64,000 bases of DNA from Escherichia coli. Lineage in GTDB: Bacteria; Pseudomonadota; Gammaproteobacteria; Enterobacterales; Enterobacteriaceae. Of this stretch, positions 8,670 through 25,952 are shown one piece after another (the first letter of the stretch is position 1; the number at the start of each line of letters is the position of its first letter). Made by a program: the position numbers and the translations under genes. The DNA is taken from NCBI RefSeq assembly GCF_044324785.1, contig NZ_CP172127.1; one strand, written 5' to 3'. The notes beneath the pieces were generated by a model. That model was not told where the DNA came from and ran no database searches. It was given only the letters and a program-made list of their open reading frames with translations.

Positions 8670-9128
8670 TTAGCGTCTGGCTGGATAATGTTGGATGCTG
8701 GATTCCAGATTTGCCAGGATCAAAGCGACATCGGCATCCGCCAAACGAAATTCCGCCTGCCATATATTCTCTGACGTATGAAATGTAGGGCATAGCCCGC
8801 AAGCCAGTATCACTTTGATAATAATGACATCACCGGAATACCCTGTGTATTCGAACTCCAGGCATGGCTCGGTAAATTCCAGATTTTTCTCCGGGTAGCC
8901 ATCGGGAGAAGGGCGCTGCAACAATGTGGTAAACCACCTATGAAGCTTTGTTAAGTCATATGTCCCTATTGCCGGATCTATCTTTTCAAACCGCTGATTT
9001 CCCTGCGTCACGCCCACTTTGAGGAATAACCAGTTACCATCCCAGAAATTACTGGCATCAGGATACTGATACCCCATAACATCCAGCGTCAAAGTAACGG
9101 CCAGCTCACTATTGCTTAACGTAATCAT
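8670..9128 (-). CDS. Hypothetical 152-aa protein (candidate accessory gene between pldA and recQ)
   Basis: Intact ORF MITLSNSELAVTLTLDVMGYQYPDASNFWDGNWLFLKVG...; no signal peptide or transmembrane segment seen; does not match any protein I recognise; sits between two core genes. Confidence 0.55.
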   Translation of the reverse strand: MITLSNSELAVTLTLDVMGYQYPDASNFWDGNWLFLKVGVTQGNQRFEKIDPAIGTYDLTKLHRWFTTLLQRPSPDGYPEKNLEFTEPCLEFEYTGYSGDVIIIKVILACGLCPTFHTSENIWQAEFRLADADVALILANLESSIQHYPARR

Positions 9129-11714: not shown

Positions 11715-12095
11715 ATGTTACGTATGTTTATCCCAACATCTAATGGTAAGATTTCCAGACGCCGTTATATATTTTCATTTATTTTAATAAATTTCATTTT
11801 TGCCTTTCTTATTATCTTTTTTAACGATGGGGAAGCAGATTTTCTTGTTATAGTCTCTACCATCGTACTCCATTATCTCGTCATCAACTTGAATTGCCAA
11901 CGACTCCGTGATAGTGGTTTCGTCTATATAAAAACTTATGTTTTTGGTACATTAGCAGTATATATCATCTCTATCATCACAATGATAGCCGAAGATTTTG
12001 CCTGTTCAGGCAATGGTTCGATGATTTTTTTGATTTGTTATTTTTCCACTTTCAGTATGCTAATGCTTGCACCTACTGATTCATCAAAACAATAG
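11715..12095 (+). CDS. yigF: Small inner membrane protein (DUF805-like RRLxDxG motif)
   Basis: 126-aa product from [20 protein letters not shown]... with two hydrophobic segments and the motif NCQRLRDSG; AT-rich; Shine-Dalgarno 'aagga' upstream of ATG 11715. Confidence 0.75.
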
Positions 12096-12108
12096 TTATG
12101 GAGTATTT

Positions 12109-12489
12109 ATGAGTAAGGAATATATGAACGATGGTTCATTAAGTGAAAAATGGAAATACCGATTTAATTTTTATGATCAACATGGCTTTCCAGGATTCTG
12201 GGGGGCAACACCAGAATATAAAGCAGCATTTAAAACATTAAAAGTAAGACAACGATTAACTATTCAAATGAATTTCATTGCTTTCTTCTGTTCCTGGATC
12301 TATTTATTTGTTCTGGGATTATGGAAAAAAGCAATTATAGTTCTATTACTTGGCATTCTATCTCTATTTGTTGGTGCACTAATTGGCGTTAACATTCTGG
12401 GAATTGCCGTAGCAGCCTATGTTGCTGTTAACACGAACAAATGGTTTTATGAGAAAGAGGTAAAAGGGTTAAATACCTGGAGCCTTTGA
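12109..12489 (+). CDS. yigG: Small inner membrane protein
   Basis: 126-aa product from MSKEYMNDGSLSEKWKYRFNFYDQHGF... with two hydrophobic helices; AT-rich. Confidence 0.75.
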   Translation: MSKEYMNDGSLSEKWKYRFNFYDQHGFPGFWGATPEYKAAFKTLKVRQRLTIQMNFIAFFCSWIYLFVLGLWKKAIIVLLLGILSLFVGALIGVNILGIAVAAYVAVNTNKWFYEKEVKGLNTWSL

Positions 12490-12496
12490 ATAACAG

Positions 12497-12530
12497 GTGG
12501 CTTAGCCAGGCTAAGCCACCGCCTTCTTTT
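12497..12530 (+). terminator. Intrinsic terminator after yigG (bidirectional hairpin at the ancestral yigG/corA junction)
   Basis: Stem 'ggtggcttagcc / ggctaagccacc' followed by 'gccttctttt'. Confidence 0.65.
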
Positions 12531-12679
12531 TACAACCAGTTCTTCCGCTTAAAGTACAGATACGGTGCCAGGCCCGCGAGGATCATAAAGATAATCGCGC
12601 CAGGGTAGCCGAAACTCCACTTCAGTTCCGGCATAAACTCAAAGTTCATGCCATAGCTGGAGGCAATCCGCGTAGGAAA
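12530..12679 (-). pseudogene. corA: Displaced 3'-terminal fragment of corA (last ~48 codons, no start)
   Basis: ~150 bp that is a near copy of corA 14241..14390 (identical over the first 70 bp, a handful of mostly silent mismatches afterwards, then diverging); encodes ...[44 protein letters not shown], identical to the CorA C-terminus. The 67-aa ORF 12530..12733 is this fragment fused to unrelated upstream sequence. Confidence 0.85.
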
Positions 12680-12856
12680 AAGTTTCCTAATCGGTAAATT
12701 CAACATTTTGTTATTAACAATGAGCAAGACCAATCATTAACGACGTTCTCTTCAGAGATGTAATGAAAAAATGTGAAGTGTACTTCTTTTCTAAATATTT
12801 TTTTACCCTAGCATTTGTTCTCGAATTGATATTGAGCTTAAATATAACTAAGGCAA

Positions 12857-13711
12857 ATGCAAATGAATAACATATTACTTCCGCCAATTAATATTCCCTG
12901 TACACTTTTCGAAACTATTAGTTTATTCGATGATTTTTCTGCTGATGATATGCAATATGGTGATATGGTAGAACAAGACTTTCTCTCACTCGGCCTAAGC
13001 GATATCTCAGCAAAAGTTGATCCTTACCGACTTATTAAATACCATTTCCCTGGCCCAGGTTCTATTAATGTTGCTTTTAGTGCCTCAAGTTCCGGAACAA
13101 AAATATCACAACGTGAATGCACTGATATTTTATTTGCAGAAATGAAAGAACTAGCAAAAATGTTTTCCTTTTTTGGACAATATAAAACACTTATCGAAGA
13201 TCTGATTGAAAATTTTAGATATGGAAATGGCAGCAATTTTCATAGCCAACAATTAAATTTATCTTTTCATGAAAAAATAAATAAATATGGTTATAATAGT
13301 CCAATACGAATAATCAAAGAATGTATCGAAAATGGCATTAATTCAACTCCCTCGACAGGATACCAACCTCTTATCCTGCAAAGCATTAAAACCAAATTAC
13401 TTTCATCAAGACTAAATAAATTTAATGACTTCAAGGACAGTTTTAATGGCTTAGGAATCAGTGTTCATGATATTTCAGCTCAAAAAATATCTCTTTTAAG
13501 TTTTCAAAAATACGCTATAGGATGGAGTGCAACAATTCATTTTGTAGCACAGGACCACTTCGGTCTCGATGTAACTGATATCAAAAACAAGACTTATAGC
13601 AAATATAGATTTTTTCGCATATGGTTCTTTTTACAACGGCATAAAGACTTTGCTTTCAAACCTTTTTTCACCAATTTTAACACTATAGAAAGAATCGAAA
13701 ATTATCTATGA
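12857..13711 (+). CDS. Hypothetical 284-aa protein, no signal peptide (candidate toxin/effector or defence protein of an inserted cassette)
   Basis: Intact ORF in strongly AT-rich DNA; better Shine-Dalgarno spacing suggests the second ATG (12863, MNNILLPP...) may be the start; contains a Cys (QRECTD) and downstream His residues (SVHDIS, TIHFVAQDHFGLD); stop overlaps the start of the next ORF. Confidence 0.65.
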   Translation: MQMNNILLPPINIPCTLFETISLFDDFSADDMQYGDMVEQDFLSLGLSDISAKVDPYRLIKYHFPGPGSINVAFSASSSGTKISQRECTDILFAEMKELAKMFSFFGQYKTLIEDLIENFRYGNGSNFHSQQLNLSFHEKINKYGYNSPIRIIKECIENGINSTPSTGYQPLILQSIKTKLLSSRLNKFNDFKDSFNGLGISVHDISAQKISLLSFQKYAIGWSATIHFVAQDHFGLDVTDIKNKTYSKYRFFRIWFFLQRHKDFAFKPFFTNFNTIERIENYL

Positions 13712-14199
13712 AAAGCAAACTCCAGAAAATTATATTATGTTTATTTCTTCTATGCTGCATCTATAATTTATGGACATTGCGTCCTGTACAGATTTTGTAT
13801 ACATACTCTGATGCTGGCAATTCAGTCTTTCTGGTCGTTGATCATCTGCCATGGACTGACAGCGATAAAATAAATTGGTATCTGAAGCATCAGAATGAAA
13901 TTAAAAATCAACATCCCCTACCAGAAGGTAGTTGGCATACCTGGTATGTCATTGATATCGGTAATGGCTTCACTGACTATAAAAAATATATTGAAGGGCC
14001 GTATGAAGATCTCTACTGTTTCCCGACAATTAAGAGCAATGATAATTGCATCGTGAAAAATTACTTAATGGTTATTAATGAATACCCTTATCGTAACACT
14101 CATATTGGTATTAACGATTTTACTGAGTATCAATTAACACAAGAAAATAAAATAGAGCGAGTTTTCAATCCGCATGACTTTAAAAAAGACAATTTTTAG
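13708..14199 (+). CDS. Hypothetical 163-aa protein with N-terminal signal/anchor segment (candidate immunity or partner protein)
   Basis: MKSKLQKIILCLFLLCCIYNLWTL... hydrophobic N-terminus; start ATG overlaps the upstream stop (ATGA at 13708..13711), implying translational coupling; AT-rich. Confidence 0.65.
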   Translation: MKSKLQKIILCLFLLCCIYNLWTLRPVQILYTYSDAGNSVFLVVDHLPWTDSDKINWYLKHQNEIKNQHPLPEGSWHTWYVIDIGNGFTDYKKYIEGPYEDLYCFPTIKSNDNCIVKNYLMVINEYPYRNTHIGINDFTEYQLTQENKIERVFNPHDFKKDNF

Positions 14200-14205
14200 A
14201 AATAA

Positions 14206-14233
14206 GCCGGATAAAAAAATAGCTTTATCCGGC
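14206..14233. terminator. Hairpin between convergent cassette ORF and corA (putative bidirectional terminator)
   Basis: Inverted repeat 'gccggataaa ... tttatccggc' with an A-rich loop. Confidence 0.5.
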
Positions 14234-14240
14234 ACTCATA

Positions 14241-15191
14241 TTACAACCAGTTCTTCCGCTTAAAGTACAGATACGGTGCCAGGCCCGCGAGGATCATAAA
14301 GATAATCGCGCCTGGGTAGCCGAAACTCCACTTCAGTTCTGGCATAAACTCAAAGTTCATCCCGTAGCTGGAAGCAACCAGCGTCGGTGGCAGGAACACC
14401 ACGGATACCACCGAGAAGATTTTGATGATGCGGTTCTGCTCGATGTTGATAAAGCCCATAGCCGCCTGCATCAGGAAGTTCACCTTCTGGAACAGGGATT
14501 CGTTATGCGGCAGCAGGGATTCGATATCTCGCAGGATTTCACGCGCCTGCTCCAGTTGCCCACCCGGTAAGCGTGCTTTACGTACCAGGAAGTTGAGCGC
14601 GCGCTGGGTATCCATCAGACACAGGCGAACTTTCCAGCCGATATCTTCCAGTTCCGCCAGCGTGGAGAGCGCCTCGTCGTACTCATCGCCCTGATGCCCT
14701 TCCATAATTACCCGGCTCAACTGCTCCAGGTCGCTGTAGATATTTTCAATTTCATCTGCCAACTGTTCGATTTTGGTTTCGAACAGATCCAGCAGCAGCT
14801 CGTAGGCATTACCGTCTACCATCGACTGGCTACGGGCACGCATACGATACAGACGGAATGCAGGCAATTCACGCTCACGCAGAGTAAACAGACGACCATC
14901 ACGGATGGTAAATGCCACAGTGGAGTTACCGGCGTGATCTTCCGCATCTTCAAAGAAGAAGAAGGAGTGAATATGCAGGCCGTCATCGTCTTCAAAGAAA
15001 CGTGCCGATGCTTCGATGTCTTCCAGTTCCGGGCGGGTTGCCAGGCTCTGGCCAAGTTCAGATTGTACGCGCAGTCGCTCGTCGTCGTCCGGTTCGACAA
15101 GATCAATCCATACTGCATTTACAAGGGGTTGTGACTCTTCGACTTCCAGCCGGGTCAGTCGGTTATTTTCCAGTTGAAATGCGCTCAGCAT
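14241..15191 (-). CDS. corA: Mg2+/Co2+ transporter CorA
   Basis: Start placed at [31 protein letters not shown]... (316 aa); C-terminal GMN motif ([11 protein letters not shown]); 'cat' at 15189..15191. Confidence 0.93.
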
Positions 15192-16407: not shown

Positions 16408-17310
16408 ATGAAAAAAACGCTCGCAACGTTATTTTTATTAACGTGTCTGGGATCATCATCCGCTTATGCGGATAACGCTTTGATTTTACAAACTGATTTT
16501 AGCCTGAAAGATGGTGCCGTCTCGGCGATGAAAGGGGTCGCATTCGGTGTTGACCATAATCTTAAAATATTTGATTTAACACACGAAATTCCACCGTATA
16601 ACATCTGGGAAGGCGCTTACCGCCTGTATCAGACCGCCAGTTACTGGCCGCAAGGTTCGGTATTTGTCAGTGTGGTCGATCCTGGTGTTGGTACAGACCG
16701 TAAATCGGTAGTGCTGAAAACCAAAAACGGTCAATACTTCGTTTCACCAGATAACGGTACGCTCACTTTGGTGGCACAAACTCTGGGTATTGATAGCGTC
16801 CGGGAAATCGACGAAAAAGCTAACCGCCTGAAAGGTTCTGAAAAGTCATATACCTTCCACGGTCGTGACGTGTATGCCTACACCGGTGCGCGTCTGGCTT
16901 CCGGGGCGATTACGTTCGAACAGGTGGGGCCAGAGCTTCCTGCAAAAGTTGTCGAACTTTCTTATCAGAAAGCAAAAGCAACAAAAGGTGAAGTGAAGGG
17001 CAATATCCCGATTCTCGATATTCAGTACGGCAACGTCTGGAGCAATATCAGCGACGAGTTGCTGAATCAGGCAGGAATCAAACTCAACGACACGTTGTGT
17101 GTGACCATTTCCGAAGGTTCCCAGCAAAAATACGCAGGGAAAATGCCGTATGTCGCAAGCTTCGGCGATGTGCCGGAAGGCCAGCCGATGGTGTATCTGA
17201 ACAGCTTGTTGAATGTTTCCGTGGCGCTGAATATGGATAATTTTGCGCAGAAACATCAGGTTGCGTCTGGTGCTGACTGGAATATTGATGTGAAGAAGTG
17301 CGCTAAGTAA
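16408..17310 (+). CDS. SAM hydroxide adenosyltransferase (DUF62) family protein with N-terminal signal peptide
   Basis: 300-aa ORF; signal peptide MKKTLATLFLLTCLGSSSAYA; then LILQTDFSLKDGAVSAMKGVAFGVD...THEIPPYNI...VSVVDPGVGTDRKSVVLKTKNGQYFVSPDNGTL, which matches the DUF62 N-domain pattern as I remember it. Confidence 0.7.
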   Translation: MKKTLATLFLLTCLGSSSAYADNALILQTDFSLKDGAVSAMKGVAFGVDHNLKIFDLTHEIPPYNIWEGAYRLYQTASYWPQGSVFVSVVDPGVGTDRKSVVLKTKNGQYFVSPDNGTLTLVAQTLGIDSVREIDEKANRLKGSEKSYTFHGRDVYAYTGARLASGAITFEQVGPELPAKVVELSYQKAKATKGEVKGNIPILDIQYGNVWSNISDELLNQAGIKLNDTLCVTISEGSQQKYAGKMPYVASFGDVPEGQPMVYLNSLLNVSVALNMDNFAQKHQVASGADWNIDVKKCAK

Positions 17311-23136: not shown

Positions 23137-24645
23137 GTGATCGGCACCTCGCGCCAGGATGGCTTTATGCACTATCGCAATGTGGTTTGTTTGTTGTCTT
23201 GTTCGTTGTTTTTATCGTCGGCATGGGGATGTCGGCTTTCCGCGCCTGAACATAATATTTACCAGAAACAGGGAAAAGGCGTGGTATACCTGCGCCCTTA
23301 TAAAGAAACAAATCTTTCTCTTCCTGACGTGAATTACAAAAGTTTGCGTCGGTTACCCAATTTATTAATAGACCCGACAACACTAGACGAATGGGATAAA
23401 GAACCGCCTCTGACTGATTTGACAACCGACTACCTCTATGAAGGCGCACAGGCCTGGTATCCTCATTACTCCTGGCATAGCGATGGTCGCTATATCCTTT
23501 ACGCGGGTGAAGTTGTGCAAAACCCGCCAGACAAACCTCCCGTCGATGTCGCCTCGTTCAAGGCGTGGGGTGATTTTGCCGCAGATAAACACAGTCTCTA
23601 TTTCGAAGGCAAGCGCACCGATAACAATGGCGGGGGAAATAGCTTAGATATCAAAACACTGCATCAGGTGGAATTCCGGCCTCCCTGGAAACCTGACTTA
23701 CTGGGGCTGATATTACGTGACGCTAATTTCTTATATATCAATGGGCATCGCCTCGCTGACCCCGAGAGTTTCCGTGTGCTGGCGCAGAAGTCCTGGGATC
23801 AGCGAGGAAAGTTTTCTACCGCGTTTAATCCCTGTGTGGCTATGCCATTTGGCCCCTGGGATACCCTGGCTCGTACACGGACCAAAATCCTGATCAACGG
23901 CGAACAGCTTGATGCCGACCCGGACACCTTTTCCGTCGTGCGCTGGATGCCCGGCTCACTCTTGACCTGGCGTGATAAAAACGGGCTACAGCGTAAAGTC
24001 CTCGACAAGGAAAATCTGGCGTGGGATGAAGATTTAACAAAGCACTGTCTGGATTTTTCTCTGCTGGAAAAGAAAGTGTTCTGGCGTAAAGGGCCTGACT
24101 GTAAACAGGAAGAGTTACCGGGGCTCGATCCTGAACAGTTCCACCCCATCAGTGATGCTGTCGCCCAGTATCAGGATTCGCTTTATACCATCATCGAAAC
24201 AGAGTCTGGTGACCGCAAGCTGGAGATCGTGAAACTTGATGATCCCAATCTTATTATCAACAAACGTTTCAACGCCGGGAAACGCCACGGCTATTTACTT
24301 ACGCGTGCCGAAGGGTGGCCATACCATTCCGGTTTACACGTGTTTGAATCTGACGGACCGCTGATCTTACTGGATAACCGCTCTCCGGATGAACGCGAAG
24401 CCCATCTTAATGACCATCCCTTTTTGCGCAGATGGTATGCCCGCGATAACCGCTACATTTACAGCTTTGATGGCGCGCAGCTCTGGCGATACCGCATCGC
24501 TGATCCGAAACAAGTTCGCTTAATCTGGAAGGAACAACATTCGGGATATGGCTATGGCGTAAATTACAAAACGGGATATCTGGACGGAAAAATTACTGAT
24601 GACGGCGAATTTATTCCTGCCCCGCGCAATGAGGCGACAAAATGA
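23137..24645 (+). CDS. Secreted repeat protein (DKNYY-like repeats), first of a tandem paralogue pair
   Basis: 502-aa ORF (an alternative start at 23167, MHYRNVVCLLSCSLFLSSAWGC..., gives a signal-like N-terminus); recurring motifs DKHSLYFEGKR, DANFLYINGHRL, DNRYIYSFDG; collinear similarity to the downstream ORF. Confidence 0.65.
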   Translation: MIGTSRQDGFMHYRNVVCLLSCSLFLSSAWGCRLSAPEHNIYQKQGKGVVYLRPYKETNLSLPDVNYKSLRRLPNLLIDPTTLDEWDKEPPLTDLTTDYLYEGAQAWYPHYSWHSDGRYILYAGEVVQNPPDKPPVDVASFKAWGDFAADKHSLYFEGKRTDNNGGGNSLDIKTLHQVEFRPPWKPDLLGLILRDANFLYINGHRLADPESFRVLAQKSWDQRGKFSTAFNPCVAMPFGPWDTLARTRTKILINGEQLDADPDTFSVVRWMPGSLLTWRDKNGLQRKVLDKENLAWDEDLTKHCLDFSLLEKKVFWRKGPDCKQEELPGLDPEQFHPISDAVAQYQDSLYTIIETESGDRKLEIVKLDDPNLIINKRFNAGKRHGYLLTRAEGWPYHSGLHVFESDGPLILLDNRSPDEREAHLNDHPFLRRWYARDNRYIYSFDGAQLWRYRIADPKQVRLIWKEQHSGYGYGVNYKTGYLDGKITDDGEFIPAPRNEATK

Positions 24646-25952
24646 AGGGTCAAATAATCACAGTTGCACTCATCCTGTTGGGGCACACATTTCTGACACC
24701 TGCTGTACAGGCCATAGAGTTCGACTATTACAATGATCACGGTGTCATGTCTTACGGTAAAGGTTATTGGGGGGATAAGAAAATCATTGCCCAATTTCCG
24801 AAGATGAACAGGGCCGATTTGCGCCTTGTGAAAAATATATCCGGGGAGACGGATTATATACCTTCCGATGAAATGAGCATAAAAAATGAGGAATACCACT
24901 GGGTGACAGACGGCCACGTTATTCTCTGGCGTGGCAAAATCGTTAGCAATCCACCGGGAACACCCACTGTCGATATTGCCAGCTTTCAGGCTATGGGCCG
25001 CTTCGCGGTCGATAAATATAGCCTCTATTTTGACGGACAGCGCACCGAAAGTAATAGCGGCGCGTCACGTGTTGATCTGGCGACACTAAAAGCTATCGAA
25101 GGTAACTCTACCACGCTGGTGGATAGTAAAAATCTCTACTTGTCCGGTAGACGTCAGGGGAGCAGCAGTAATGTTACTGTATTAGAAAAAAGATGGTGGG
25201 GTATTAATCCACGTCTTATGAGTGTAAACAGAAATTTGTATTCCAATGATCTGCTTATCCGCAGTGGGCAGAATATTTATTTAAATGGCGTTCACCTTAC
25301 GGCGAATGCAGACTCATTTGAGATAATTCGCTGGATACCTCATTCACTGCTGGTTTTTCGCGATAATAAGGGTATGCATCGTTATCCCTTTGGGCAATTG
25401 TCTGGCAAAGCGATACCCGTAGATGATGACGTCTCTTTTGAAGTAGGAGAAAGTCGCGTTCGCTGGCGTAAACAGCTCACGCCCGACCGTCAGTGGAGCA
25501 AGTGGATAGACCTACCAGGTATTGAACCTGAACAATTCCATCTGATTACTGGCAATATTGCGCAATATAAAGATCGGTTGTATGTAACAAAATTATCGAC
25601 ATTTGGTGAAGACCAGCTTGAGATAATCCCGCTGGATACGCCAGACCTGGTCATTGATCGCTCATTTAATAGCGGCAAACAGCATGCTTATTTTATCCGC
25701 CAATTACGGTCAAAGAGCGTGCAAATTATTCCAGTTAACGGTCCGCTAACTAAAAACGATCGCTTCGCTTATGACGATCGCAATGTTTATACATGGACCG
25801 ATACAGAGGTAAGGATTACGCCCTCCCCCTGCCCGGCGAAAACACGCGTCAGAGAAGAGAATGTGCGTGAACTTCACAACAGAGACATTATTATTCCGTT
25901 GACGGATGAATCATGCCAGAACGCAGCAGACGAGCAAACTTTGAAGCCCTGA
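24642..25952 (+). CDS. Secreted repeat protein (DKNYY-like repeats), second of the tandem paralogue pair
   Basis: 436-aa ORF with signal peptide MKGQIITVALILLGHTFLTPAVQA; start overlaps the upstream stop (ATGA); motifs DKYSLYFDGQR, DSKNLYLSGRR, QNIYLNGVHL, DRNVYTW. Confidence 0.65.
   Translation: MKGQIITVALILLGHTFLTPAVQAIEFDYYNDHGVMSYGKGYWGDKKIIAQFPKMNRADLRLVKNISGETDYIPSDEMSIKNEEYHWVTDGHVILWRGKIVSNPPGTPTVDIASFQAMGRFAVDKYSLYFDGQRTESNSGASRVDLATLKAIEGNSTTLVDSKNLYLSGRRQGSSSNVTVLEKRWWGINPRLMSVNRNLYSNDLLIRSGQNIYLNGVHLTANADSFEIIRWIPHSLLVFRDNKGMHRYPFGQLSGKAIPVDDDVSFEVGESRVRWRKQLTPDRQWSKWIDLPGIEPEQFHLITGNIAQYKDRLYVTKLSTFGEDQLEIIPLDTPDLVIDRSFNSGKQHAYFIRQLRSKSVQIIPVNGPLTKNDRFAYDDRNVYTWTDTEVRITPSPCPAKTRVREENVRELHNRDIIIPLTDESCQNAADEQTLKP

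Follow-up and report, generated by a model that had tools for sequence, protein, structure and literature searches.

Why two overlapping, strongly AT-rich genes should stand among the housekeeping genes of an Escherichia coli chromosome, and what their products may do, is the question raised by a 64,000-nucleotide stretch of contig NZ_CP172127.1 (RefSeq assembly GCF_044324785.1), the whole of which is referred to here as the window and which corresponds to the metE-recQ-pldA-yigI-rarD … corA-uvrD-xerC-dapF-cyaA-hemCDXY-wec region. The two genes lie between rarD and corA and encode a protein of the DUF3289 family and, directly downstream, a membrane-anchored DUF943 protein. They are best explained as an orphan antibacterial effector–immunity module of the DUF3289/DUF943 family, a reading to which we assign a probability of about 0.72. 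As a discovery this carries little weight: RefSeq labels both genes of the pair by these family names, work published from 2024 onwards has proposed, and in part validated, a role for the family as type VI secretion system (T6SS) effector and immunity protein, and a homologous complex has been solved by crystallography. The pair is thus already known, in annotation and in the literature, and consists of ordinary DUF3289/DUF943 toxin–immunity genes.

The toxin gene and its family

An uninterrupted open reading frame (ORF) extends on the plus strand from 12857 to 13711, with 284 codons counted from the first ATG and a G + C content (GC) of 31.7% versus 51.8% for the whole window; it belongs to a segment of approximately 12.5–14.2 kb with 32–37% GC inside the 52% GC of the window. 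In RefSeq the gene starts at the second ATG (12863), yielding a protein of 282 residues, and this is likely the true start because the Shine-Dalgarno-like AAGG at 12850–12853 (plus strand, direct sequence reading) is spaced 9 nt from it, versus 3 nt from the ATG at 12857. The product has no N-terminal signal peptide or transmembrane segment: its highest 19-residue Kyte-Doolittle mean is 1.44, the N-terminus is not basic and the most hydrophobic stretch is modelled within the globular fold. An ATGA at 13708–13711 contains both its stop codon and the overlapping start codon of the next ORF. The original prediction, made from the sequence alone, had described an AT-rich ORF of 284 codons, free of export signals and overlapping its downstream neighbour, and all of this was borne out.

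The same prediction stated that the protein has no recognisable family, and named a DUF3289-type effector as a tentative possibility. The statement was wrong and the guess exactly right, as found by the profile hidden Markov model (HMM) search that had been recommended as a check, which returned DUF3289 for the toxin and DUF943 for its partner. The match to Pfam DUF3289 (PF11692; E 4e-83) spans protein residues 12–280 and model positions 2–270 of 272, and that to NCBIfam TIGR03034 (the YPO3983 family) reaches 435.7 bits, against a curated cutoff of 156.45, over positions 1–274 of 274. The ratio of non-synonymous to synonymous substitution rates (dN/dS) is 0.12–0.21 for the toxin gene and 0.09–0.14 for the DUF943 gene in three informative comparisons, with a value of 0.45 in one near-identical pair; therefore, both genes are maintained by purifying selection.

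The immunity gene

The DUF943 gene (13708–14199, plus strand) encodes 163 residues, and the ATGA overlap couples its translation to that of the toxin gene. Its product matches DUF943 with an E-value of 1.8e-26 and, in a structure model with a predicted local distance difference test score (pLDDT) of 87.5, begins with a hydrophobic helix (residues 2–24, Kyte-Doolittle maximum 1.79), so that it looks signal-anchored, as previously suspected. An invariant cysteine pair, C104 and C114, is consistent with a periplasmic disulfide. The HMM match, the N-terminal membrane anchor and the position directly 3' of DUF3289, by which membership of the family was judged, are all found here.

The order of the two genes, interpreted earlier as that of an effector followed by its immunity gene, is supported by the homologues. 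Loss of linkage to the downstream partner had been named beforehand as an observation that would speak against this view; instead, DUF943 directly follows DUF3289 in 9/9 stand-alone pairs examined, namely those of the window, E. coli 19KM1831, O157:H7, a non-enterica-subspecies Salmonella enterica, Enterobacter (two in tandem) and three metagenomic sequences (38–41% identity). All nine sit among housekeeping genes, without T6SS neighbours. In Klebsiella genomes, clusters of DUF3289 and of DUF943 were linked 780 times (PMC12469244). The Enterobacter locus (L005, 6499–9319) carries a truncated 225-residue DUF3289 with its DUF943, followed by the full pair, and one metagenomic locus (L016, 341–2238) has a single toxin gene followed by two DUF943 genes in tandem. 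Tandem DUF3289–DUF943 arrays of this kind point to an accumulation of immunity genes, which is also seen in other polymorphic toxin systems.

Predicted fold and conserved core of the toxin

The AlphaFold model of the toxin was built from 33 diverse homologues, with identities down to 23%, which also served as the conservation set, and has a mean pLDDT of 89.2 and a predicted template modelling score (pTM) of 0.85. Structure prediction followed by a Foldseek search had been proposed as a check in the original prediction, and the model was found to match PDB entry 9jdi with an E-value of 6.6e-12 (profile E-value of the toxin versus 9jdi_A, 1.1e-28); it thus takes the fold of the solved DUF3289 domain. 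Entries 9jdi, 9jg8 and 9jg9, deposited as 'DUF3289 family protein', are the Bacteroides fragilis T6SS effector BtpeA with its immunity protein BtpiA, the full-length effector being present in 9jg8/9jg9. From the two structure comparisons, the toxin and its DUF943 partner therefore match both chains of one solved effector–immunity complex.

Nine residues (H234, F235, G236, D241, W256, L259, Q260, P269 and F270) are invariant in the 33 sequences, and D233, L237, D238 and D205 are at least 90% conserved. They outline a core formed by D233-H234-F-G-L-D238-x-x-D241, followed by W256, Q260, P269 and F270, and the elements of this C-terminal core of DUF3289 (DHFGLDxxD, W...L-Q and P-F) are all present both in the window protein and in the solved BtpeA. 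As judged from the alignment, the conserved centre of the toxin is acidic, with histidine.

A different centre had been proposed initially, namely a papain-like or amidase Cys-His one, built on 'a single cysteine' in a 'conserved-looking' context, with Cys88 as the nucleophile. The protein contains three cysteines, at positions 15, 88 and 156. Cys88 does lie in a locally conserved E-C-x-x-x-L-F context among the closer homologues, as the proposal would have it, but it is kept in only 18/33 homologues and replaced by V, A, I, R or a gap in the other 15; Cys15 is kept in 8/33 and Cys156 is not conserved. With respect to the histidines, H204 is retained in 29/33 homologues and H228 is not conserved. 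BtpeA has no cysteine aligned to Cys88 (ELFADF versus ECTDILF), and the structural hits include no papain, NlpC/P60 or amidase fold. The Cys-His centre is rejected because of the limited retention of Cys88 and the lack of conservation of the other cysteines and of H228; the conservation data already refute the reading of the toxin as a Cys-His hydrolase, which we regard as the least probable of those considered.

The relation to colicin M

A more specific, and plausible, mechanism within the best explanation would make the toxin a colicin M-type lipid II phosphoesterase, cutting the undecaprenyl-pyrophosphate linkage in the periplasm, with DUF943 as the functional equivalent of the colicin M immunity protein Cmi. 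Cmi is, like DUF943, an N-terminally anchored periplasmic protein, which counts in favour of this mechanism. The Pseudomonas colicin M homologue PaeM is found at rank 2–3 of the Foldseek search with the toxin model (E 0.04, probability 0.63–0.75), phmmer yields a faint match of the toxin to pectocin M2 (E 0.62) and both families appear to place a conserved Asp/His at the end of a β-strand that precedes a helix and the terminal strand. Furthermore, the periplasm-targeted form of a Yersinia pseudotuberculosis PAAR-DUF3289 protein was found in 2024 to be toxic to E. coli, with cell rounding, and to be neutralized by its DUF943 partner, and a colicin M-like, cell-wall-directed activity was proposed by those authors from a Foldseek match to PaeM (PMC11148199).

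Against this assignment, the toxin has no Pfam match to PF14859 (Colicin_M), and alignment of the DUF3289 and ColM profiles with hhalign yielded a probability of 0.1%, the ColM profile being shallow (four sequences) as the sequence search retrieved mostly near-identical or frameshifted ColM fragments; this value weakens the case for homology at the sequence level. The ColM motif D-x-Y-D-x5-H-R (DKYDFNASTHR in ColM) is missing: DHFGLDxxD stands in its place, and the corresponding segment of the window protein, QDHFGLDVTDIKNK, has a spacing that is not equivalent and no HR pair. Cmi was not retrieved among the top 60 structural hits of the DUF943 model, and no lipid II assay of any DUF3289 protein was found in the literature searched. 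Colicin-style import would not be the delivery route of the toxin because it has no TonB-box or receptor-binding domain, the DUF3289 fold being the whole protein. Thus, a colicin M-type reaction is somewhat less than an even prospect, and the often repeated equation of DUF3289 with colicin M corresponds here to a weak fold match, which no shared catalytic residues corroborate.

Delivery, proposed mechanism and alternative explanations

The distribution of domains within the family bears on how a toxin of this kind may reach its target. Among 35 representatives aligning over at least 250 residues, 24 are stand-alone proteins (255–291 residues) and 11 carry N-terminal extensions, so that the toxin-only form is common and, indeed, the commonest architecture in the family. 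Of 27 longer homologues scanned, nine contain PAAR and one DUF4280, and others have an M23, M14, PG_binding_1, SH3_3 or glycoside-hydrolase-like domain. DUF3289 has also been described as the C-terminal toxin of PIX-domain effectors and, in Enterobacter, in fusion with an M23 peptidase whose gene adjoins a vgrG gene. The domains of the longer homologues connect the family with the cell wall as well as with contractile injection systems. Examination of the homologues for a T6SS context, as recommended at the outset, gave both the PAAR fusions of the longer forms and the stand-alone pairs without T6SS neighbours described above. Action of the toxin on the cell wall in the periplasm is regarded as well supported by the published phenotypes and the domain fusions taken together.

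By taking into account the published relatives and the anatomy of the pair, the following steps can be proposed for an orphan effector–immunity module. The 282/284-residue toxin, which has no export signal, would be synthesized in the cytoplasm, carried as a cargo effector on the T6SS spike of the strain and injected into neighbouring Enterobacteria; an interaction with VgrG, PAAR or an adaptor is more likely because a 32-kDa toxin is probably too large for the lumen of Hcp. In the periplasm of the recipient, it would act on the cell wall or a cell-wall precursor, through a catalytic centre that is likely acidic with histidine and possibly metal-dependent (H204-D205 plus D233-H234-x3-D238-x2-D241), leading to cell rounding and lysis. 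The DUF943 protein, held in the inner membrane, would bind and block the incoming toxin with its disulfide-bonded periplasmic domain and so protect producer and kin cells alike. Neither gene is present in K-12-type strains, which are therefore predicted to be sensitive prey.

Several observations weigh against this explanation. A simple sigma-70 scan revealed no candidate promoter in the 12677–12856 interval upstream of the toxin gene. DUF3289 is the sole Pfam domain of the toxin (residues 12–280), with no PAAR, VgrG, Hcp, MIX, PIX or WHIX-type delivery domain, and there is no T6SS gene near the pair, whose neighbours are yigG, yigF, a corA remnant and corA. The T6SS apparatus was looked at in one strain, N3 (NZ_CP031609.1), which is 100% identical over a 2-kb query spanning the pair (window 12400–14400), an identity established around the cassette only, with coordinates drifting by 10–25 bp further downstream. 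This strain has a T6SS-1 cluster at aspV, which comprises two hcp genes, vgrG, an Rhs pseudogene, tssB/C/E/F/G/J/K/H/M, dotU, tagH, vasI, tssA and a VasL-domain gene, and the presence of such an apparatus counts in favour of the effector reading. On the circular chromosome the cluster is, however, approximately 946 kb away from the cassette, and its tssA and VasL-domain gene both carry frameshift annotations, so that the system could be inactive. The frameshifts may also be assembly indel errors. In the same assembly the housekeeping genes hemD, ecpE and dkgB are likewise flagged as frameshifted, and within the T6SS-1 cluster itself (locus L010 of strain N3, 4726001–4776000) the Rhs core is also annotated as frameshifted or incomplete.

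Some of the same observations feed the main competing explanation, namely that the module is kept mainly for immunity, the orphan toxin being no longer delivered by this E. coli lineage and the DUF943 protein guarding against the DUF3289 effectors of competitors such as Klebsiella, Enterobacter, Salmonella or other E. coli. Besides the lack of a delivery domain and of T6SS neighbours and the frameshifted tssA and VasL genes of strain N3, this explanation would account for the surplus, toxin-less DUF943 genes found elsewhere (as the tandem copies of L016), for an orphan WapI-like immunity gene 3.5 kb away from the pair and for the interruption of the cassette by IS1 in some strains (e.g. H15). 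However, the toxin gene is intact and retains all of the invariant residues, purifying selection on it is as strong as that on the immunity gene, stand-alone proteins are the most frequent members of the family and an orphan DUF3289 protein of Aeromonas jandaei is secreted by a T6SS (PMC12135965). The latter (WP_042032936.1, strain DSM 7311) was detected in 2025 in the T6SS-dependent secretome, self-competition demonstrated that it forms a genuine effector–immunity pair (PLoS Biol, PMC12135965) and the result was upheld in liquid culture in a 2026 preprint. The missing delivery link need not, on this analogy, disqualify the E. coli pair, orphan cargo effectors being known, and retention mainly for immunity appears to be unlikely. 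Far less probable is an intracellular toxin–antitoxin or abortive-infection pair acting in phage defence, which was also contemplated in the original prediction and could be suggested by a two-gene AT-rich cassette with overlapping genes and variable presence. A search against the PADLOC-DB models gave no match to either protein at E-values up to 1, and the defence-system reading was dropped on this basis. Moreover, members of the DUF3289 family are fused to PAAR and secreted, and the anchored, periplasm-facing immunity protein with its conserved disulfide pair, next to a toxin without an export signal, corresponds to the layout of an interbacterial effector–immunity pair, because with such topologies toxin and partner would not meet inside the producer.

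A bolder proposal, which we consider improbable, is that the pair encodes a T6SS cargo effector which discriminates between strains and acts by a chemistry other than that of colicin M, with DHFGLDxxD marking a new class of periplasmic cell-envelope hydrolases. If this were true, the presence or absence of the pair and its diverged alleles at the recombination-prone rarD–corA site would help to decide which E. coli lineages coexist in the gut. In a more radical variant, a toxin free of delivery domains could be exported by a route other than the T6SS.

The rarD–corA site

At a single chromosomal site, the orphan pair occurs in about half of the complete E. coli genomes (2636/5426 contain 80% or more of the 2-kb query), among them O157:H7 and O104:H4 strains. 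In the window, two copies of a 152-nt direct repeat flank the cassette (12525–12676 and 14236–14387, 93% identity); from the alignment, the repeat begins precisely where the stop codon of corA lies. Within the left copy is a corA remnant, annotated in RefSeq as a partial CorA gene (12530–12676, minus strand), a pseudogene consisting of the last 49 codons (147 bp); the right copy (14236–14387, minus strand) is, from the repeat alignment, the 3' end of the intact corA (14241–15191). A hairpin scan revealed a perfect 11-bp-stem hairpin at 12496–12520, the bidirectional terminator common to yigF and the former 3' end of corA, and a second hairpin at 14206–14233, between the DUF943 and corA stop codons, scored as the corA terminator. 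Thus, the native yigF/corA terminator stays with the left copy and the intact corA has a different hairpin, which probably also ends the toxin–immunity transcript. The AT-rich leader at 12677–12856 (plus strand), which separates the toxin gene from the corA remnant, is presumed to be the promoter region.

At least four arrangements of the rarD–corA interval (window 11715–14387) occur in E. coli. K-12 has yigG-yigF alone; 19KM1831 has the DUF3289–DUF943 pair alone, which Salmonella also carries at this site; the window has yigG-yigF followed by the corA remnant and the pair; and O157:H7 has a different hypothetical gene, again followed by a corA remnant and the pair. Recombination between the repeat copies would be expected to restore the K-12 arrangement. 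Two E. coli toxin alleles differ with a dS of 0.45, versus 0.067 for the adjacent corA genes, and look like old allelic lineages swapped by recombination. YigG and YigF, small AT-rich membrane proteins, behave as an alternative cassette at the site.

Neighbouring accessory genes

Other accessory genes are found in the window. Between recQ and pldA, an orphan WapI-like immunity gene (8670–9128, minus strand; PF24716, E 6.6e-22) has no adjacent toxin gene. This second immunity element of a polymorphic-toxin type lies less than 4 kb from the pair and is absent from the Salmonella locus L002, where recQ and pldA are 83 bp apart. Between lptM and cyaY, in a patch of lower GC, two overlapping tandem paralogues (23137–24645 and 24642–25952, both plus strand) encode proteins of 502 and 436 residues that are 35% identical. 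RefSeq names the first 'DKNYY family protein' and the second hypothetical, and neither has an NCBIfam or PADLOC match; the two ORFs look like an accessory insertion because in the same Salmonella locus just 137 bp separate the homologues of lptM and cyaY. When YigF, the WapI-like ORF and the two DKNYY-like ORFs were checked against NCBIfam, none reached a family model. Finally, between yigE and uvrD, a gene at 16408–17310 (plus strand) encodes a 300-residue protein of the S-adenosylmethionine (SAM) hydrolase/SAM-dependent halogenase family with an apparent signal peptide, whose scores against the (R)-SAM hydrolase and fluorinase models do not reach the cutoffs; the gene is present in the window, in O157:H7 and in strain S4, and absent from the K-12-type locus L007.

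Comparison with known effector–immunity systems

Among the systems with which the pair may be compared, the colicin M family (ColM, pectocins M1/M2 and PaeM; PF14859), whose members degrade lipid II, likewise acts in the periplasm against the cell wall, and the colicin M immunity protein is membrane-anchored and faces the periplasm, as with DUF943. The family differs in that there is no sequence or profile similarity, DxYDx5HR is absent from the window protein and the immunity fold does not retrieve Cmi.

A closer relation is found with the BtpeA C-terminal domain/BtpiA complex (9jdi), as the DHFGLDxxD...FRxWFxLQ...KPF core is common to BtpeA and the window toxin, with identities of 18–22% for the toxin and 11% for the immunity protein. 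BtpeA is a protein of 608 residues with an N-terminal PAAR-type region, encoded within a T6SS locus, whereas the window toxin corresponds to the toxin domain alone and is encoded at a housekeeping locus. The T6EC1/T6IC1 pair of Y. pseudotuberculosis IP32881 (Mol Syst Biol 2024, PMC11148199) combines the two Pfam families of the window pair in identical order, and T6IC1, with approximately 157 residues, a transmembrane helix at 7–26 and a periplasmic body, resembles the DUF943 protein of the window (PMC11148199); T6EC1 is, however, a specialized PAAR effector within a T6SS operon, and the window toxin an orphan without PAAR. It is the DUF3289 protein of A. jandaei, an orphan encoded away from the spike genes and yet secreted by the T6SS (PMC12135965), that provides the best functional precedent for the arrangement found in E. 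coli.

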